From assembly GCA_000092065.1 (NCBI GenBank), contig CP000588.1: a DNA stretch of 64,000 bases; one strand, written 5' to 3'. This DNA comes from Ostreococcus lucimarinus (taxonomy: Eukaryota). Below, piece after piece: positions 21,960 to 29,697 of the stretch. The position numbers and the translations under genes are program-made. The notes under the pieces were generated by a model. That model did no database searches and was not told the origin of the DNA. It saw only the letters and a list, made by a program, of their open reading frames with translations. Numbering within the stretch: position 1 is the first letter of the stretch; the number at the start of each line of letters is the position of its first letter.

Positions 21960-22808
21960 TTAGTTTAAAGGTTTACGGCAGACGAAGACGCCCCACGCGA
22001 AGACGCCGTGATCGCGTTGAGTGTCCGCGCGCTCGGTGAGCGACTCGAGCCAATTGTCGAGGTACTTATCCGTCAAACCCTTGGAGAGCATCTCTTCGCG
22101 ATGGGTGTGAATCTGCTTGATCATGTCGCGGAAATACGTTTCCAAGTGATTGCTGCCGTCCCACCACGTGACGTAATCCAGTCCGGCATCCTTCATGCAC
22201 TGCAGGTACGTGGACGGGCGACCCATCACCGTGGTGGCGTTGCGATCGGTGAATCCCTTGAGGGTCTTTTCATCGGCGCCGTCGGCACCCATGATGTCCG
22301 AAAACACGAACGCGGCGCCCGGCTTCAACACGCGCGCGACTTCTTTGAATAATTCGGGCTTATCGCCGGCGTGGCACAACACCTCGCACGACCACGCGCC
22401 GTCGAACGAATTCGTCCAATCCGCCGGAAACGGCTTGTTAATGTCCCCGACGACCGCGTCGACGAGATCGCCCAGGCCGAGCTCCTTCGCCTTGGCGATG
22501 TTCTGCGCGTTTTGTCCCGGTCCAATGTTATATCCCATCACCGAGCATCCGTACTTCTTCGCCAACGCGTGCGATCCGCCGCCGTGCCCGCTTCCGATGT
22601 CCAGCAACTTATCCCCCGCCCCGATCGGTCGCGCCATGTCCAACTGCGTCATCATCCACGCCGTCGTCGCCGCGCTCGACTCGCGCACCCCATCTTTCGC
22701 GTCTCTGTAGATACCAAAGTGAATATCGTCACCACCACCGCCCATGACGATCGTGTAAAACAGTCGCTGCTCGGCTTCGTCGTACTGCTCGAGCACCATC
22801 TTCCCCAC
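21960..22808 (-). CDS. Class-I SAM-dependent methyltransferase, resembling sarcosine/dimethylglycine or phosphoethanolamine N-methyltransferase
   Basis: Motif I LLDIGSGHGGGSHALAKKYGCSVMGYNI, motif II DLVDAVVGD, post-II FDGAWSCEVLCHAGD, motif III LKPGAAFVFSDIM. The whole protein is 282 aa. Confidence 0.6.
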   Translation of the reverse strand: MGKMVLEQYDEAEQRLFYTIVMGGGGDDIHFGIYRDAKDGVRESSAATTAWMMTQLDMARPIGAGDKLLDIGSGHGGGSHALAKKYGCSVMGYNIGPGQNAQNIAKAKELGLGDLVDAVVGDINKPFPADWTNSFDGAWSCEVLCHAGDKPELFKEVARVLKPGAAFVFSDIMGADGADEKTLKGFTDRNATTVMGRPSTYLQCMKDAGLDYVTWWDGSNHLETYFRDMIKQIHTHREEMLSKGLTDKYLDNWLESLTERADTQRDHGVFAWGVFVCRKPLN

Positions 22809-23094
22809 CTCCTCCTTGTCGAACTGTTTCCCGACGAAATCAGCCTGCGAATCGCGCGACGCGATCGTTCGTCAGTCTCGCTTCGCGCGCGCGTCGTCGT
22901 CGTCGTCCTCCGCGCCGTCGCGCGCCGCCGAAGCGTCGCGACGTCGCGACGTCCCGATCGCCGTCGTCGCCGTCGGTTTATCCGGCGCTCGCGTCGCGCG
23001 CGCGTCGCGTCGGCGCGCGCGCGTCGCGTCGGCGCGTCGCGCGCGCGCACCATGATGCGCGTTCGCCGTCTCGGTCGCGATCGAGCGCGTCGCG

Positions 23095-24081
23095 GTGTGC
23101 GCGCGCGACGCGACGCTTCGCTTCGGTCGTCACAATCGACCGCGACGGTTCGCGACGCGGCGACGCCGCGCGACGCCGCGCGAGCCTCGCGCGCGCGCGC
23201 GGCGACGACGACCGCGACGCATGAGCGTGCGCGCGCGCGCGGCGGCGTTCGCCGCGGGAACGGCGCGACCGATCGACGGCGACGCGCCGGCGACGCGCGA
23301 GGACGCGCGCGCGCGAAACGCGACGAGGACGACGACGACGACGACGACGACGCGCGACGACGCGACGACGGAGGGCTCGGGGACGCGCGTCGACGCGTCG
23401 ACGGCGCGCGCGCGAGGCGCGGCGACGCGCGAGGAAGGCGCGAGCGGGACGCGCGGCGACGCCGCGCGGTTCGAGCGCGCGTTTGAAAAGGCGTGCGACG
23501 CGTTGGCGCTCGCGCGGGCGATCGAGGCGACGGTGCGACGGGAAACGGTTTGGACGGGACGAAGCTCGGCGCGCGAGCGCGCGCGGGCGAGATCGTTGGC
23601 GGCGGAGCGGGCGTACGAAGCCGTCGCGGAGCGACCCGGCGTAACCGTCGACGCGAAGCGCGACGAACGCGCGAGGCCGGCGTCGAGCGGTCGAACGACG
23701 GCGACGGCGCGCGAGGAGGAAGATACGTCGATGAGTGTCGTGCGGTCGTTTTCGTTCGCGCGGGACGAGGTCGACGGTGACGATGGCGACGTCGGCGACG
23801 CGGACGCCGACGAAGACGAACCGTCGCGAGAGGCGTTCGAGGACGACGGCGGCGAATCAGGCGCGCTGCGCGAGATCGCGCGCGCGCGTCGCGAGATCGC
23901 GAGCTTACTCGCCGACTCTCGGAGCGACGCCGCGCGCGGCCGTCCACGACGCCTCGACGCGGAGACGCCCGCGGAGACGCGAACCGTCGCCTCGCCGAAT
24001 CGCCGCGTCGAAAAAACCATCGTCATGGATCGAATCGCCATGATCGACGGCATCTTAGCCGCGCTCGCGGAGGATCGATGA
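23095..24081 (+). CDS. Hypothetical acidic low-complexity protein (uncertain)
   Basis: High-GC3 frame ending ...SPNRRVEKTIVMDRIAMIDGILAALAEDR with an Asp/Glu-rich tract. At least three other long ORFs overlap it on both strands, and it contains a (GAC)n microsatellite at ~23335-23365. The frame choice is tentative. Confidence 0.2.
   Translation: MCARDATLRFGRHNRPRRFATRRRRATPREPRARARRRRPRRMSVRARAAAFAAGTARPIDGDAPATREDARARNATRTTTTTTTTRDDATTEGSGTRVDASTARARGAATREEGASGTRGDAARFERAFEKACDALALARAIEATVRRETVWTGRSSARERARARSLAAERAYEAVAERPGVTVDAKRDERARPASSGRTTATAREEEDTSMSVVRSFSFARDEVDGDDGDVGDADADEDEPSREAFEDDGGESGALREIARARREIASLLADSRSDAARGRPRRLDAETPAETRTVASPNRRVEKTIVMDRIAMIDGILAALAEDR
23335..23365. repeat. 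(GAC)n microsatellite
   Basis: gaggacgacgacgacgacgacgacgacg. Confidence 0.9.
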
Positions 24082-24221
24082 TGCGTTCGGTCGTGTCGTA
24101 TCGTATCGCATCGCGACGCAACGCGCGTCCATCTTCGCGGCGCACCGTGTAATCTACTTCTAGAGTCTATAGCCCGCGACGGCTTCGCGACGCGCGTCCC
24201 CGGCTCGCCTTCGCCCATCTC

Positions 24222-24632
24222 TCAGTCCTCTCCCATGCGAAACCCGATCGGGTCTCGATGCGCCCCCGTTCCCAGGCAATCCATGCACACGCTTCGTCCC
24301 GAGCCTCGGCAGTCGACGCACCATCGCGGCCACGCGCCGCGCGCCTGCACCTCGCCGTCCCGTCTCGCGTTCTCCCGCCCTCGCGCCTCGCACCGCGCGC
24401 ACGCCCGCGTCCCGAATCCATCGCACGCCGCGCACGTCCTCTTACCCTCGGGCGTCGCCCGCGCGCGCTCGAACGCGCGCGGGCGCGCCCACGTCGACGC
24501 GTCGTCGTCGTCGTCGCTCGCGGCGCGCGGCGTCGCGCGCGGACGCGCACCGCGCGGCGTCGCGCGCGCGCGGCGACCGGCGACCGGCGCGGCGACGACG
24601 ACGGCGCGCGGCGCCGCGCGCGACGTCGCCAT
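24222..24632 (-). CDS. Small DnaJ-type zinc-finger protein with four CxxCxGxG repeats, BSD2-like plastid assembly factor
   Basis: MATSRAAPRAVVVAAPVAGRRARATPRG... (transit-peptide-like), then CAACDGFG / CARCEARG / CVDCRGSG / CMDCLGTG. It is ~136 aa and lies at the 3' end of the artefactual 710-aa ORF 24222..26354. GC3 is strongly biased in this frame. Confidence 0.5.
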   Translation of the reverse strand: MATSRAAPRAVVVAAPVAGRRARATPRGARPRATPRAASDDDDDASTWARPRAFERARATPEGKRTCAACDGFGTRACARCEARGRENARRDGEVQARGAWPRWCVDCRGSGRSVCMDCLGTGAHRDPIGFRMGED

Positions 24633-24744
24633 GCGCGTCGACGCGCGCGCGCGGTGCGCGTCTCCGCGCGCGACGACCACTGGCGACATCACAACACGGC
24701 GCGCGCGCGAACGCGGACGAACGCGCGCGCGGCGCGCGGACGCG

Positions 24745-25554
24745 ATGCGCGGACGAGCGATGCGCGCGTGCGCGGAGACGATCGGCGCGATGCGCCGCGG
24801 CGCGACGCGCGCGGAACGCGGCGCGATCGGACGGTGGTTGATTTCGAGCCGCGATGACGATCGAAGCGCTGGCGCGACGCGCGAGCGCGCGAACGCGCTC
24901 GAGACGCGACCGCGGACGTACGCCAACGCGTCGCGAGCGTTCGGGGCGTCGCGCACGGTGGAACAGTGGAGCGAACTCGCGGAACGGGGGGTGGACGTGA
25001 ATCCGTGCAATAGCCCGAAACACCCGGCGGCGCTGGCGGGAGTGCAGACGGCGTTCGACGCCGGACGCACGCGAAGGAGCCTGCAGGAGGCGTATGATCC
25101 GCATTGTATCGATTTCGTGTGCGGACGCGCGCACGACACGGCGGGGAAGATTGGATTGGTGTCGTATCGATGCGAAAACGAGGAAAACGTGCTCGAGTCG
25201 CACTTGAAGTTTCCGTCGCAGTACGAAGAGTTTCCAGGAATCATCGGACCGGCGATGTACGGCGTCGCGGCGAGCGCGCATGGAAATTGGGCGGCGTCGA
25301 TCGCGCTGATGGACCGCGCGATCCTACCGAGACCGCCGTTGGTGGCGGTGAAATCGCTCGCGGTGAGCGTCGTCGACTTGGTCGGTCCGGGCGAGCCCTT
25401 GACGTTACGATCGCGATTGCTCGAGGTCGAGGACGCGCGCGAACCGTTCCGCGTCGTCGTCGAGATCGAGATCAAATCCAAAGCCACGTCAAAAGTCGTC
25501 GCTCGAGCGGAGTGTTCGTACGAAAAAATCGGCGCCGTGCGTTCGATGCGGTGA
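24745..25554 (+). CDS. Hotdog-fold thioesterase-superfamily (PaaI/4HBT-like) protein
   Basis: GIIGPAMYGVAASAHGNWAASIALMDRA fits the HGG..A.L.D thioesterase motif. LVAVKSLAVSVVDLVGPGEPLTLRSRLLEVEDAREPFRVVVEIEIK fits the central beta-sheet. The ATG (24745, 24760 or 24790) is uncertain; upstream the ORF is low-complexity. Confidence 0.35.
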   Translation: MRGRAMRACAETIGAMRRGATRAERGAIGRWLISSRDDDRSAGATRERANALETRPRTYANASRAFGASRTVEQWSELAERGVDVNPCNSPKHPAALAGVQTAFDAGRTRRSLQEAYDPHCIDFVCGRAHDTAGKIGLVSYRCENEENVLESHLKFPSQYEEFPGIIGPAMYGVAASAHGNWAASIALMDRAILPRPPLVAVKSLAVSVVDLVGPGEPLTLRSRLLEVEDAREPFRVVVEIEIKSKATSKVVARAECSYEKIGAVRSMR

Positions 25555-25755
25555 TATCGTCCAACGCTCTTCGCTCGCCGCGGCGACGCCCGAGCCCCGA
25601 CTTCGACCTTCCCCGATCCCGCGCGATTCCCTTTCACCGTTTTGTACGCTGTTGTACCGTGTATAGCCGTCATCATGTAGTTTAGAGCAGCACGCACGCT
25701 CACGCTCGCCGGTTCGCCGACGCCCTCGCGCCGCTCTCGGGAAACCCTTTCACCC

Positions 25756-28700
25756 TTGGACCATCGCGCCTCCTGCCAGCACACGCGCGCGCGCACGACC
25801 GTCCTCGACGCGTCCCGCGCGCACGTGGACACGCGCACATCGTCGACGTCGACCGCGCGCGCGATGCCGCACGCCGTCGGCGCGCCGCGCGGCGCCGCCG
25901 CCGCGATCGGGACGAAAAGGTGGGCGAACGACCATCGACGCGACGTCGCGCGAGCTGGACGCGTTTCGCGCGCCGCGGGACGACGCGCGAGCGCGTCGAA
26001 CTCGGTGACGTCCGTGGACGTGCGCGCGCGCGCGCGCGCTGGGGCGGTGCGACGGAACGGTGGAGACGCGCGCGACGTCGCGGCGGCGGCGGCGAGCGAC
26101 GAAGCGGCGACGGAGCGAGCGGGCGCCGCGGCGCGCGAGGGGGTCGTCGCGAAGGCTGGTAAGAGCACCGTGAACGTCACGAACGCTGGACCGAGCTTGG
26201 AGAGCATTCTGCGATCGAAGAGCGGGTTTACGAAGATTTTGTGCGCGAACCGCGGAGAGATCGCGGTTCGAGTGTTTCGAGCGGGGACCGAGTTGGGGAT
26301 GCAAACCGTGGCGGTGTTCGCCGAAGCCGATCGACAGTCGACGCATAGGTACAAATCCGATGAATCGTACGAGGTCGGTCACGGCAAGGCGCCGGTGGCG
26401 GCGTATTTGGATTACGAATCCATCATTCGCTGCGCCAAGGAGAACGGGGCGCAGGCTATTCATCCGGGCTACGGATTTTTGAGCGAAAACGCCGCCTTTG
26501 CGCGACGATGCGAGGAAGAAGGGATCGTGATGATCGGGCCGAAGTCGCAAACGTTGACGGAGATGGGCGATAAGGTGATCGCCAAGGCGAAAGCGAAGGA
26601 GTGTGGGTTGCCGCTCGTGCCGGGGACTGAAGAGGCGACGGCGGACGTCAACGATGCCTTGGAATTCGCCAAGGAGTTCGGAATGCCAATCATGCTCAAG
26701 GCCGCGATGGGCGGTGGTGGTCGCGGTATGCGTGTTGTCAAGGAGTACTCCGAGCTCGAAGATGCGTTCAAGCGCGCTTCGAGCGAGGCACAGACTGCGT
26801 TCGGCGACGGGAGAATGTTTTTGGAACGTTACGTCGAGGCGCCGCGACACATCGAGGTGCAAATTCTAGCCGACAACTACGGTAACGTCGTTCACTTGGG
26901 CGAGCGCGATTGTTCCGTGCAACGTCGTCACCAAAAAGTTGTCGAGTTGGCGCCCGCGCCCAACCTTGACCCAGTGCTTCGCCAAAGATTATTTGACGAC
27001 GCCGTGGCGCTCGCCAAGCATGTCAACTATCGCAACGCCGGCACGGTGGAGTTCATGGTTGATAAGCAAGGGCGTCACTATTTTTTGGAAGTGAACCCGC
27101 GCATCCAAGTAGAACACACTGTGACGGAAGAAGTCACTGGGATCGATTTGGTGCAATCGCAGATATTGATCGCAGGTGGTCAAAAGTTGTCCGACATCGG
27201 TATCAAGTCCCAAGACGACATTCAGCTTCGCGGCTTCGCGATGCAGTGCAGAATCACCACCGAAGACCCGTCCATGAACTTCTCTCCGGATTTCGGCAAA
27301 GTTGAGGTCTACCGTCCTCCGGGCGGTATGGGTGTGCGTTTGGATGGTGAAGTCGTGGTCGGTTCGCGAGTGTCACCCAACTACGATTCGCTCCTCGTCA
27401 AGCTCACGTGCTCGGAGAAGAACTTTGAAGCAACCGTGCAAAAGATGTATCGATCGCTCAATGAATTCCGTATTCGCGGCGTGAAGACAAACATTCCGTT
27501 CCTGATGAACGTTTTGTCCAGCGAAACGTTCTTGAGCGCGAACTTTGCCACGGACTTTATCGATAGCACTCCGAGCTTGTTCAAGTTGGACTCGTACATC
27601 GATGACACGCAGAAGCTTCTCAATTACCTCGGTGACGTTGCCGTGAACGGTTCGTCGCACCCTGGTGCGGTCGGTCCCGCGCCGACGTGCGCGGAACCGC
27701 CAGTTCCCGAACCGAAGAAGTCTTTAGCGCAGCTCAAGGACACCGGGTTCAAGGCTATTTTGGACAAGGAGGGTCCGGCGGCGTTCGCCAAAGCGGTTCG
27801 CCAGCACAAGGGCTTGCTCATCATGGATACGACGTGGCGGGACGCGCACCAGTCGCTCTTGGCGACGCGCGTGCGGACGCACGACCTTCGTCGTTCGGCA
27901 CCACTCACGCGAAGCGCCCTCAGTGGCGCGTATTCGCTTGAGATGTGGGGTGGCGCCACCTTCGACGTCGCGCTTCGATTCTTGCAAGAGGATCCGTGGA
28001 GGCGACTCGAGCTTCTTCGTGAGCAAGTGCCAAACATCCCATTTCAAATGCTTCTTCGCGGCGCCAACGCGGTCGGTTATACTTCGTACGCGGACAACGT
28101 CGTGCAAAGCTTCGTGCACCAAGCGCGCAAGTCTGGTATCGATGTTTTCCGCGTTTTTGACTCGCTCAACTACGAAGATAACCTCATGTTTGGCATCGAC
28201 GCCGTGCGCAACGCCGACGGCGTCGTTGAAGCGACAATTTGCTACACTGGTGACGTGAGCGATCCGAAGAAGACTAAATATACGCTGGACTATTATGTCG
28301 ACCTCACGACCAAGCTCGTTGAGCACGGTATTGATGTGCTCGCCGTGAAGGACATGGCTGGTTTGTTGAAGCCGCGCGCCGCGACGATGTTGATCTCCGC
28401 CATTCGCGCCAAGTTTCCCGACTTGCCCATCCATGTGCACACCCACGACACCGCTTCAACGGGCGTGGCTTCCATGCTCGCTGCTGCCGCGGCAGGTGCG
28501 GATGTTGTCGATGTGTGCATGGACGCCATGGCTGGCACGACGTCCCAACCCGCCATCGGCGCCGTGATCAACTCAGTCGCGGGCACCGAGCTCGACACCG
28601 GATTGGATATCGATGAAGTGCTCAAGCTCAACTTGTTCTGGGAACAAACGAGAGGTCTGTACTCTCCGTACGAGAGCGGTATTAAAAGCGGAAGCTCAGA

Positions 28701-29697
28701 TGTGTACATTCACGAGATGCCCGGTGGTCAATACACCAACTTGAAGTTCCAAGCGTACGCCAACGGACTCGGAAGCGAATGGGATCGCATCAAGGATTCG
28801 TACGCGACGGCGAATAAGATCTTGGGTGACATCGTGAAGGTGACGCCGTCTTCCAAGGTCGTCGGTGATTTCGCGCAATTTCTCGTCGCGAACAACCTGG
28901 ATGAGCACTCCGTGGTGGAAAAAGCTGACACGTTGTCCTTCCCGACTTCCGTCGTCGAGTACTTCCAAGGATACCTGGGCCAACCCGTCGGTGGCTTCCC
29001 CGAACCGCTTCGCTCGCGAGTGGTGAAGAACAAGGAAATCATCGCCGGTCGTCCTGGGGCGTCGCTTCCCAGCATGGACATCAACAAGTTACAAAACGAG
29101 CTGTCCATCAAGCACACCGGCCGTCGATCGATCACGCACAAGGATGCGCTCGCGGCGGCTTTGTACCCGAAGGTGTTCGACGAGTACGTCGTGAAGCGCG
29201 ACACCGTCGGGCCGGTCGGTTTGCTCCCGACCAAGGCGTTCTTGAAGGGATTGGACATCGATGAAGAGATCGAAGTCACCACCGATCGCGGTGTGAGCAC
29301 GAACATCAAGCTTAAGGCTGTCGGTGAGCTGTTGCCAAGCGGCAACCGCGAAGTGTTCTTTGAAGTCAACGCGATTCCGCGCGTCGTCGAGATCCACGAC
29401 AGAAAGATTCTCGAGAGCGCCTCCAAGGGCGGCGGCGGCGCAGTCGCTCGCGAGAAGAGCGATCCACTCGACCCGGGCTCGGTCGGCGCCCCGATGTCAG
29501 GGTCCGTCGTCGAAGTCCTCGTCGCTCCCGGTCAAAAGATTAAAGCGGGCGAGCCCATCGTCGTGTTGAGCGCGATGAAGATGGAAACGACCGTCGCTTC
29601 TCCCGTCGCCGGCACCCTCAAGCACGTCGGCGTCGTCAAAGGCGACACGTGCGCCGCCGGCGATTTAATGTGCGCCATCGACGTCGACGCCGCGTAA
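25756..29697 (+). CDS. Pyruvate carboxylase (biotin carboxylase, carboxyltransferase and biotinyl domains)
   Basis: ILCANRGEIAVRVFRA, GYGFLSEN, MLKAAMGGGGRGMRVV, HIEVQILADNYGNVVHLGERDCSVQRRHQKVVE; the CT domain FRDAHQSLLATRVRT...HTHDTASTGVAS; the C-terminal biotin site SAMKMET. The N-terminal ~140 aa are a leader. Confidence 0.95.
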   Translation: MDHRASCQHTRARTTVLDASRAHVDTRTSSTSTARAMPHAVGAPRGAAAAIGTKRWANDHRRDVARAGRVSRAAGRRASASNSVTSVDVRARARAGAVRRNGGDARDVAAAAASDEAATERAGAAAREGVVAKAGKSTVNVTNAGPSLESILRSKSGFTKILCANRGEIAVRVFRAGTELGMQTVAVFAEADRQSTHRYKSDESYEVGHGKAPVAAYLDYESIIRCAKENGAQAIHPGYGFLSENAAFARRCEEEGIVMIGPKSQTLTEMGDKVIAKAKAKECGLPLVPGTEEATADVNDALEFAKEFGMPIMLKAAMGGGGRGMRVVKEYSELEDAFKRASSEAQTAFGDGRMFLERYVEAPRHIEVQILADNYGNVVHLGERDCSVQRRHQKVVELAPAPNLDPVLRQRLFDDAVALAKHVNYRNAGTVEFMVDKQGRHYFLEVNPRIQVEHTVTEEVTGIDLVQSQILIAGGQKLSDIGIKSQDDIQLRGFAMQCRITTEDPSMNFSPDFGKVEVYRPPGGMGVRLDGEVVVGSRVSPNYDSLLVKLTCSEKNFEATVQKMYRSLNEFRIRGVKTNIPFLMNVLSSETFLSANFATDFIDSTPSLFKLDSYIDDTQKLLNYLGDVAVNGSSHPGAVGPAPTCAEPPVPEPKKSLAQLKDTGFKAILDKEGPAAFAKAVRQHKGLLIMDTTWRDAHQSLLATRVRTHDLRRSAPLTRSALSGAYSLEMWGGATFDVALRFLQEDPWRRLELLREQVPNIPFQMLLRGANAVGYTSYADNVVQSFVHQARKSGIDVFRVFDSLNYEDNLMFGIDAVRNADGVVEATICYTGDVSDPKKTKYTLDYYVDLTTKLVEHGIDVLAVKDMAGLLKPRAATMLISAIRAKFPDLPIHVHTHDTASTGVASMLAAAAAGADVVDVCMDAMAGTTSQPAIGAVINSVAGTELDTGLDIDEVLKLNLFWEQTRGLYSPYESGIKSGSSDVYIHEMPGGQYTNLKFQAYANGLGSEWDRIKDSYATANKILGDIVKVTPSSKVVGDFAQFLVANNLDEHSVVEKADTLSFPTSVVEYFQGYLGQPVGGFPEPLRSRVVKNKEIIAGRPGASLPSMDINKLQNELSIKHTGRRSITHKDALAAALYPKVFDEYVVKRDTVGPVGLLPTKAFLKGLDIDEEIEVTTDRGVSTNIKLKAVGELLPSGNREVFFEVNAIPRVVEIHDRKILESASKGGGGAVAREKSDPLDPGSVGAPMSGSVVEVLVAPGQKIKAGEPIVVLSAMKMETTVASPVAGTLKHVGVVKGDTCAAGDLMCAIDVDAA

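Follow-up and report, generated by a model that had tools for sequence, protein, structure and literature searches.

The minus strand of the window analysed here, a 64-kb stretch of Ostreococcus lucimarinus DNA, holds a 710-aa ORF whose end encodes a run of cysteine motifs, and this raises the question of whether a real gene lies within the frame and, if so, to which family its product belongs. We put at roughly four in five the probability that the locus carries a genuine zinc-finger gene of about 155 codons that lacks a J domain and belongs to a green family paralogous to BSD2, with a product that likely serves as an organelle holdase or thiol factor. The features at the level of genes are as follows.

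24222..26354, minus strand: 710-aa ORF, a GC-rich artefact in its whole extent upstream of about 24689
24222..24689, minus strand: proposed zinc-finger CDS, 155 aa plus TGA stop, single exon
24222..24632, minus strand: the same CDS from the alternative start, ATG 24632, 136 aa
24690..24744, between the head-to-head genes: intergenic spacer of 55 bp, presumed bidirectional promoter region
24745..25554, plus strand: divergent neighbour gene, 269 aa from ATG 24745, conserved protein

The C-terminal 136-155 codons of the ORF translate as MSPVVVARGDAHRARASTRMATSRAAP...CAACDGFGTRACARCEARG...WPRWCVDCRGSGRSVCMDCLGTGAHRDPIGFRMGED, and the encoded protein divides into these parts.

24498..24689, minus strand: leader, residues 1-64, presumed from its composition to be an organelle-targeting presequence
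24438..24497, minus strand: pre-finger segment STWARPRAFERARATPEGKR, residues 65-84, conserved in alignments A1 and A4
24264..24434, minus strand: DnaJ-type cysteine-rich domain, residues 86-142, with four CxxC motifs
24411..24434, minus strand: motif 1, CAACDGFG, canonical CxxCxGxG
24378..24401, minus strand: motif 2, CARCEARG, degenerate (CxxCxAxG)
24297..24320, minus strand: motif 3, CVDCRGSG, canonical CxxCxGxG
24264..24287, minus strand: motif 4, CMDCLGTG, canonical CxxCxGxG
24225..24263, minus strand: C-terminal tail AHRDPIGFRMGED, residues 143-155, conserved, with the family signature xxRxPIGFR

The four motifs, which start on the minus strand at 24434, 24401, 24320 and 24287, form two pairs with 3 residues between the members of each (CAACDGFG-TRA-CARCEARG and CVDCRGSG-RSV-CMDCLGTG), and GRxN...GAWPRW lies in the linker that joins motif 2 to motif 3. 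This arrangement, two CxxC pairs each with a 3-residue spacing, is the DnaJ-type pairing rule, and the motifs also conform to the looser form CxxCx(G)x(G), in which at least one Gly is present (PMC4806229). The earlier note had counted four CxxCxGxG repeats, which is slightly overstated: four CxxC motifs are indeed there, but only 3 of the 4 show the full consensus, motif 2 being without the first Gly. This motif is canonical in relatives and degenerate in the window.

At 69% G+C, such a pattern might be a chance Cys/Gly-rich stretch within a spurious long ORF and no gene at all. In several frames the region does contain ORFs longer than 300 aa that overlap one another, and on identical metagenome contigs prokaryote-style gene callers choose an antisense ORF of 423 aa. 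Against a chance origin, a six-frame scan of the whole 64 kb returned exactly three CxxCxGxG motifs, all in the zinc-finger ORF, which is also the sole place with four CxxC within 70 aa, and block shuffles almost never yielded such a cluster (mean 0.02). The zinc-finger frame is kept in two diverged syntenic relatives with a pN/pS of 0.40-0.46, compared with about 1.2 in four of the five other frames at the locus; the fifth, interrupted by a stop in each relative, gives 0.56-0.66. The third codon positions of the zinc-finger frame show an excess of substitutions and, with dS of about 1.1-1.2 and dN/dS of 0.24-0.37 against the two relatives, these values indicate purifying selection specific to the zinc-finger frame. 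Homologues in distant algae and plants (E 1e-12 to 1e-17) keep all eight Cys invariant. Shuffles, selection and homologues together effectively refute the chance explanation, whose remaining probability we consider negligible, and on the strength of these sequence comparisons the intron-less zinc-finger gene is genuine. It would be a nuclear gene of a GC-rich marine picoeukaryote, whose compact genome and gene order appear Mamiellophyceae-like.

The upstream part of the 710-aa ORF overlaps the plus-strand pyruvate carboxylase ORF (25756..29697) and also the conserved plus-strand gene that ends at 25554, so that both overlaps described beforehand were found. Equivalent ORFs in two relatives run into in-frame stops 174 and 251 codons ahead of their C-terminal end, which shows that the long ORF is an artefact enclosing the zinc-finger gene, in line with the earlier note. 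The ORF being open far upstream in the window would also suit a larger multi-exon gene, of which the cysteine-rich segment would be the last exon and the 136-155-aa model an incomplete part, and one database protein, P0001, joins a different N-terminus to the same C-terminus. That N-terminus, however, comes from a chimeric metagenome scaffold (L001), whose first 276 nt are unmatched in the window while the remainder is 99.3% identical, and we rejected it as an extra exon. Besides the stops in the relatives, where the Met positions are conserved, family members elsewhere, among them RefSeq plant models and an ORF from a transcriptome, are complete at 120-200 aa and have a C-terminal finger, and the upstream DNA is filled by conserved plus-strand genes; a missing upstream exon is in our view most improbable. 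The relatives' closed ORFs and the conservation of both Met positions agree with a stand-alone mini-gene, as had been suggested.

The gene is masked on both strands, by the spurious 710-codon ORF on its own strand and by an ORF of 423-439 codons on the opposite one. This 155-codon gene illustrates how prone to error gene finding is in picoeukaryote DNA that is very rich in GC, and public metagenome protein sets derived from prokaryotic gene callers hold a wrong product at the locus. No record of the exact ORF product was found in the assembly index. Beyond these annotation points the gene is ordinary in kind, with nothing mechanistically surprising about it.

As to where translation begins, relatives can be aligned with the N-terminal 'M..VVVAR.DA' as well as with the second Met, and in this comparison the upstream ATG 24689 is better conserved than ATG 24632. 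A coding region of 155 codons is more likely than one of 136. The protein had been placed in the last ~136 codons of the ORF; its C-terminal location stands, and its length is better given as 155. The 64-residue leader contains 13 Arg and 18 Ala, has no Lys or Glu and ends in DDDDD, a composition from which we would guess at a transit peptide, which could target mitochondria instead of the plastid. It is poorly conserved, varies in length among relatives and is disordered in the AF2 model. The pre-finger segment that follows matches the plant 'PSWIVRTESNVRKE..KPDPP' in alignments A1 and A4.

Pfam and NCBIfam scans of the 155-aa protein returned CR-type matches only, with no J domain, glutaredoxin-like domain or other domain; the match to PF00684 (DnaJ_CXXCXGXG) reached 19.6 bits (E 0.0011), missing the gathering cut-off of 32.7. 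In the AF2 model, the mean pLDDT is 62 overall and 67-86 within the cysteine-rich domain, and its Foldseek matches, all non-significant (E at least 4.6e-3, TM 0.2-0.6), are headed by the CR domain of DnaJA2 and include BSD2 and the DnaJ CR domain. Judged from the four paired CxxC motifs, the DnaJ type of the domain is established, and the mini-gene was correctly described as encoding a DnaJ-type zinc finger. Since the zinc finger is its sole recognisable domain, the protein belongs, by the published definition (PMC12063368), to the DnaJE1 class of J-less DnaJ-like zinc-finger proteins. Proteins of this class have two pairs of CxxCx(G)x(G) motifs, with 3 residues between the members of a pair; they are Hsp70-independent and mostly plastid-located, and have holdase and disulfide-reductase activities (PMC4806229, PMC12063368, PMC5818400, PMC7217058). 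With DnaJ/DNAJA CR domains (PF00684; 1EXK, 7ZHS) the window protein has in common the CxxCxGxG repeat logic and possibly the predicted hairpin fold, but the J domain, the G/F region and the C-terminal client-binding domains are all missing from it. PSA2, LQY1, SCO2/CYO1, HCF222, OR, FIP, ZnJ2 and ZnJ6 fall into the same J-less class, most members of which are plastid assembly factors, holdases or disulfide reductases (PMC4806229, PMC7865324, PMC12063368). In contrast to the membrane-anchored FIP and ZnJ6, the window protein has no hydrophobic segment (PMC5915565, PMC7865324).

Having assigned the class, we compared the protein with BSD2, to which, together with its relatives, the architecture had been likened. 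Arabidopsis BSD2 (6EKB/6EKC/8ILB/9CI1) agrees with the window protein in size, in having a leader followed by a C-terminal four-CxxC domain and in the lack of a J domain, and the two are ~33-35% identical over ~70 residues. AtBSD2 is also the best profile match among PDB entries, albeit a weak one (27 bits, E 3.5e-5) with DnaJ CR domains next, and is among the best by fold, while BSD2_CRD is the top Pfam family, the 136-aa model reaching 23.7 bits and the 155-aa model 23.2, both under the gathering cut-off of 27. Such likeness would be expected of a true algal BSD2 orthologue, that is, a late-stage Rubisco RbcL8 assembly factor that has merely diverged. Land plants, however, have BSD2 and in addition a separate, far closer family: an HMM built from 115 land-plant members of the latter, mostly annotated 'uncharacterized', gives 72.3 bits (E 2e-24) to the window protein and 12.9 bits to the AtBSD2 fragment. 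An algal profile gave the same order, scoring plant family members at 60-72 bits and AtBSD2 at 27, so that the window protein is not closer to plant BSD2 than to the other plant zinc-finger family, as an orthologue of BSD2 should be. Among the 145 relatives found, none is a BSD2-type sequence and none has a BSD2-type second half; the GRxN, LPxGxWPxWC and RxPIGF motifs are missing from the aligned BSD2 sequence, and in the window protein the stretch from motif 2 to motif 3 exceeds that of BSD2 by 3 residues. We consider BSD2 orthology improbable. The gap between 72 and 13 bits on the plant HMM indicates that the window protein is a paralogue of BSD2 and not BSD2 itself, which leaves the earlier attribution valid for architecture and superfamily and not for identity. 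Which algal protein is 'BSD2' is unsettled in the literature, and naming the window gene BSD2 from architecture alone would for this reason spread misannotation.

The 145 relatives were retrieved when a profile was run against 1.84 billion representatives; almost all of them measure 90-240 aa and have a C-terminal finger, and land-plant proteins are among them, as is a 141-aa ORF of a transcriptome assembly. The signature of the family reads CxxCxGxG-x3-CxxCxGxGRxN-x6-10-LPxGxWPxWCxxCxGSG-x3-CxxCxGTGxxRxPIGF, and we defined the GxWPxWC orthogroup by GRxN, LPxGxWPxWC and GTGxxRxPIGF together with a protein length of 120-200 aa and a C-terminal position of the domain. The window protein displays G104-R105-E-N107, G118-A-W120-P121-R-W123-C124 and G140-T-G142-A-H-R145-D-P-I-G149-F150, and its alignment with plants (A4) has one gap of one residue across the domain and 22 invariant positions, among them all 8 Cys and W120-P121-x-W123. 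The window protein is orthologous to the green-algal and land-plant family that GRxN...LPxGxWPxWC...GTGxxRxPIGF characterises. Members annotated as uncharacterized or as DnaJ-Hsp40 cysteine-rich superfamily proteins (e.g., P0067, Cucumis LOC101214526, Quercus LOC115987151 and Micractinium KAL4428300) are similar to it in length and layout. Compared with the plant family, the window lineage shows Arg-rich substitutions, the degenerate motif 2 and CRGSG in place of the plant CGGSG, and it is missing the acidic C-terminal extension.

This family spans prasinophyte-like picoalgae to angiosperms and is nearly always annotated 'uncharacterized'; the window gene adds a deep-branching green-lineage member to it. 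No experimentally assigned function was found for any GxWPxWC member, and, the plant orthologues being almost all annotated 'uncharacterized', there is none to transfer. Cluster look-ups for the family gave no Arabidopsis or Chlamydomonas names, its peptide motifs had no match in a literature search, and a homologue search from P0054 was swamped by low-complexity candidates and returned nothing useful. The names 'EDA3', 'pTAC5' and 'SSUH2' on a few plant matches look like automatic transfers and were set aside as unreliable.

The family might coincide with a DnaJE1 member that has already been studied. By name, the plant orthologues are set apart from PSA2, LQY1, SCO2 and BSD2, none of which designates them in RefSeq. 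HCF222 is an unlikely identity, as it is reportedly absent from algae. FIP was rejected because it has two motifs only, a membrane anchor and a distribution restricted to land plants (PMC5915565). For ZnJ2, the published extinction coefficient of GB1-ZnJ2 (14,440) corresponds to 1 Trp and 6 Tyr; a single Trp, compared with the two conserved Trp of the family, suggests a poor fit, although this is an indirect hint.

Known assembly factors of this kind have specific clients: BSD2 acts on Rubisco, PSA2 on PSI and HCF222 on cytochrome b6f. By analogy with DnaJ and BSD2, the eight Cys of the window protein would bind two Zn2+, with motifs 1 and 4 forming one predicted site and motifs 2 and 3 the other, and the domain would fold into a V-shaped hairpin. 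The lack of a J domain would place the protein among the Hsp70-independent zinc-finger chaperones of the DnaJE1 class. Its most likely role would be that of a zinc-dependent holdase or assembly factor, perhaps with protein disulfide reductase (thiol-disulfide) activity, serving one specific client inside an organelle, most probably the plastid. Zinc binding, the location in the cell, any chaperone or redox activity and the identity of the client are all inferred.

The divergent neighbour had been called a hotdog thioesterase. It is a conserved gene, with orthologues 56-68% identical in L003, L006 and L002, but the label depends on sub-threshold and non-significant matches. At full length, its product matches no family in Pfam or NCBIfam and no sequence in the PDB; the C-terminal 134 aa match 4HBT_2 at 13.6 bits (E 0.09, cut-off 25.5), and the L003 orthologue aligns to the same part of that profile. 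A single-sequence AF2 model was poor (mean pLDDT 39.5), and its Foldseek list was enriched in hotdog folds, all with E above 0.05. A hotdog fold in the C-terminal half is possible.

The two genes stand head-to-head, as first described, and the distance of ~110 bp given for them applies to ATG 24632 (112 bp to ATG 24745), the better-conserved ATG 24689 leaving 55 bp. L003-L007 and L013 also keep the two genes divergent. The wider gene order is conserved too, as pyruvate carboxylase, the neighbour gene, the zinc-finger gene, an unknown gene, a methyltransferase and malate/lactate dehydrogenase. A more speculative proposal, which we find rather doubtful, is that the GxWPxWC family is a plastid biogenesis or assembly factor with a client of its own and that the algal pairing with a hotdog-like gene beside pyruvate carboxylase, across a spacer of 55-160 bp, may reflect co-regulation with acyl-CoA or carbon metabolism. 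The neighbour has alternative start ATGs at 24760 and 24790, and the spacer in the window lengthens from 55 to at most about 157 bp when other starts are chosen.

The window has a G+C content of 56-72% per 2 kb (69% around the zinc-finger gene) and both its strands are crowded with long overlapping ORFs. Among these is the 710-aa minus-strand ORF 24222..26354, present as the earlier note stated, whose C-terminal part reads ...MSPVVVARGDAHRARASTRMATSRAAPRAVVVAAPVAGRRARATPRGARPRATPRAASDDDDDASTWARPRAFERARATPEGKRTCAACDGFGTRACARCEARGRENARRDGEVQARGAWPRWCVDCRGSGRSVCMDCLGTGAHRDPIGFRMGED* and carries 4 CxxC motifs as two pairs, with 3 residues between the motifs of each pair. The description of these motifs as four CxxCxGxG repeats is exact for 3 of them, motif 2 being a degenerate CxxCxAxG. 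A six-frame scan of the 64 kb found only 3 CxxCxGxG motifs, all within the 710-aa ORF, and only one cluster in which four CxxC fall within 70 residues; such clusters averaged 0.02 in composition-preserving block shuffles. The four-CxxC cluster is real and not a chance outcome of composition. The features considered here are the following:

24222..24689, minus strand: most likely coding sequence of the zinc-finger protein, 155 aa (alternative start at ATG 24632)
24745..25554, plus strand: neighbour gene, likely start ATG 24745, alternatives 24760 and 24790
25756..29697, plus strand: pyruvate carboxylase ORF, 1313 aa
23095..24081, plus strand: convergent ORF, 328 aa, rich in Arg and acidic residues
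22371..23486, plus strand: overlapping ORF
22652..23947, minus strand: overlapping ORF
23130..24218, minus strand: overlapping ORF

The first database search for relatives of the zinc-finger protein returned close relatives only, on long marine metagenome contigs, where two further lineages repeat the gene order of the window. The order runs from pyruvate carboxylase through an unknown gene to the zinc-finger gene, which diverges from that unknown gene, and then through a convergent unknown gene to a methyltransferase of the CMAS type and, last, a malate/lactate dehydrogenase. Over a 92-codon core, the window and these two lineages are separated by a dS of ~1.1-1.2 with dN/dS of 0.24-0.30, and dN/dS between the two relatives is 0.37. 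Differences between lineages fall mostly at third codon positions of the zinc-finger frame, in which pN/pS is 0.40-0.46, against ~1.2 in 4 of the 5 other frames; the fifth, an antisense frame, gave 0.56-0.66, yet it holds a stop codon in both relatives.

In the relatives, the equivalent ORF extends upstream no further than 174 and 251 codons from the stop, the first usable Met yields proteins of 142-151 aa, and their N-termini, MARASVGVVSSARADA and MCASMVVVARARGDA, align with the window MSPVVVARGDA at ATG 24689. Because of this upstream closure and this alignment, we took 24222..24689 as the most likely coding sequence, so that the ~136 codons proposed earlier become ~155; the Met at 24632, from which they were counted, matches the second conserved Met of the relatives. 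The remaining 555 codons of the 710-aa ORF, which overlap plus-strand genes and are closed off in the relatives, are an artefact, as had been suspected. Nor do the cysteine repeats appear to belong to a larger multi-exon gene: no intron is needed, and the window protein aligns over its whole length with small, complete proteins from elsewhere. The different N-terminus of database protein P0001 was rejected: in its scaffold (L001, TARA scaffold_76027), nt 1-276 are lower in GC and unmatched in the window, the remainder matches window 23313..24521, and the join lies near a GAC-repeat (DDDDD) region. The scaffold is chimeric, and the N-terminus that P0001 joins to the zinc finger is therefore false.

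The protein is clearly a J-less DnaJ-like zinc-finger protein of the DnaJE1 class. Pfam gave CR-type matches under their cut-offs (BSD2_CRD, 23.7 bits against 27; DnaJ_CXXCXGXG, 19.6 against 32.7), and Pfam and NCBIfam returned no J domain or any other domain. Searching all PDB sequences with the algal profile placed Arabidopsis BSD2, a Rubisco assembly factor, first (27 bits, E 3.5e-5), with its four motifs all in the alignment, ahead of EMB2737 and the DnaJ CR domain of E. coli. The AlphaFold2 model (37-sequence alignment) has a disordered leader and a finger with pLDDT 67-86, and its best Foldseek matches, none significant, were the DnaJA2 CR domain, BSD2 and the DnaJ CR domain. The earlier reading was right about the architecture, a leader followed by DnaJ-type CxxC repeats. 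In Arabidopsis, ~20 DnaJE1 proteins are reported; most of these reside in plastids and serve as holdases, assembly factors or disulfide reductases that do not depend on Hsp70 (PMC12063368, PMC7865324, PMC4806229, PMC5818400, PMC7217058).

The family is another matter. An exhaustive profile search of 1.84 billion representatives (cut-off E <= 1e-3) matched 145 proteins, nearly all of 90-240 aa with a C-terminal finger. The large, top-ranked majority carry CxxCxGxG-x3-CxxCxGxGRxN-x6-10-LPxGxWPxWCxxCxGSG-x3-CxxCxGTGxxRxPIGF; the weakest matches are generic CxxCxGxG proteins without this signature, and a BSD2-type second half occurs in none of the 145. This WPxWC family spans land plants and the trebouxiophyte Micractinium, one member being a complete 141-aa ORF in a transcriptome assembly, and most of its plant members bear the name "uncharacterized protein LOC..." or "DnaJ/Hsp40 cysteine-rich domain superfamily protein". 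Aligned with 33 of them, the window protein shows 22 invariant residues and, within the domain, one gap of one residue. It scored 72.3 bits (E 2e-24) on an HMM of 115 land-plant members, versus 12.9 bits for Arabidopsis BSD2, taken as the fragment from the PDB profile match. Since land plants have both BSD2 and the WPxWC family, and the window protein resembles the latter much more closely, it is, judged by sequence, a BSD2 paralogue and not a BSD2 orthologue. The likeness to BSD2 and relatives thus stands for architecture, while the family is a distinct and apparently uncharacterised DnaJE1 orthogroup, for which cluster look-ups and literature gave no Arabidopsis or Chlamydomonas gene name. 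Published BSD2 assignments are themselves inconsistent: At5g17840 bears the name in PMC4806229, and ZnJ2 and next ZnJ6 were each proposed and then doubted as the Chlamydomonas orthologue (PMC5818400, PMC7865324). The solved BSD2 structures belong to an Arabidopsis protein other than At5g17840.

The leader has 64 residues (13 Arg, 18 Ala, no Lys, no Glu) and closes with an acidic run, found also in the relatives; it is a putative presequence of the kind with which GC-rich green algae import proteins into organelles, and going by the DnaJE1 class a plastid location would be somewhat favoured over a mitochondrial one. The structures of the DnaJ CR domain and BSD2 are established and form the basis of our zinc-site proposal. 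By analogy, the eight cysteines are predicted to bind two zinc ions, motifs 1 and 4 forming one site and motifs 2 and 3 the other, in a hairpin that would have the GRxN...GxWPxW linker, specific to the family, at its tip; after motif 4 comes the conserved RxPIGF tail. The putative activity would be to hold or assemble a client, perhaps with some thiol-disulfide chemistry as well.

The head-to-head arrangement with the neighbour gene is present in the window and kept in relatives. The spacer of ~110 bp holds from ATG 24632 (112 bp) and shrinks to 55 bp because the preferred starts are ATG 24689 and ATG 24745. Against its orthologues in three metagenome loci (L003, L006, L002) the neighbour protein shows 56-68% identity and long invariant blocks, and the plus-strand gene ending at 25554 is, on these alignments, real. 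Its earlier naming as a hotdog thioesterase survives in part: hotdog-like is plausible, thioesterase unsupported. The full protein had no Pfam, NCBIfam family or PDB sequence match; its C-terminal 134 residues alone matched 4HBT_2 (thioesterase-like superfamily) weakly (E 0.09, 13.6 bits against a cut-off of 25.5), and the L003 orthologue matches the same profile region. The single-sequence AF2 model is poor (pLDDT 39.5), and its Foldseek list, with no significant match, is rich in hotdog proteins (SAV0944, HI1161, MaoC, HadBD, FapR, PhaJ). A hotdog fold is possible for the C-terminal half. The N-terminal half has the invariant blocks RGVDVNPCNSPxHPAA, RRSLQEAYDPxCIDFV, GKIGL and QYEEFPG, which matched no family, and the C-terminal ...SYEKIGAVRSMR is the same in every relative.

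On same-organism metagenome contigs around the methyltransferase (L009-L012), callers report a 423-aa protein from a plus-strand ORF equivalent to ~24235..25554, that is, the antisense of the zinc-finger gene fused with the neighbour. The zinc-finger gene itself either goes uncalled or is reduced to a fragment of 89-93 aa. Public assemblies contain this organism very often: its methyltransferase occurs in 606 indexed blocks. The gene adds one member to an already known kind of protein. Its value is chiefly as an annotation lesson, since it is hidden by spurious ORFs and by gene calling in the prokaryotic style, and as a pointer to a family of small zinc-finger proteins that is widely conserved but unstudied.

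The stop of the convergent ORF 23095..24081 lies 140 bp from that of the zinc-finger gene. This ORF has no Pfam match, and the relatives have genes of 291 and 344 aa in the same syntenic position, matched by position alone. Across 22371..24218, both strands carry mutually overlapping 330-430-aa ORFs with Arg/Ser/Ala-rich low-complexity translations; they appear to be GC-driven artefacts, as the 710-aa ORF is. The pyruvate carboxylase ORF begins with ~100-150 poorly conserved Arg/Ala-rich codons; these, and the 1216 aa of the relatives' gene calls versus 1313 aa in the window, suggest either that the protein has an organelle presequence or that the ORF start is placed too far upstream.
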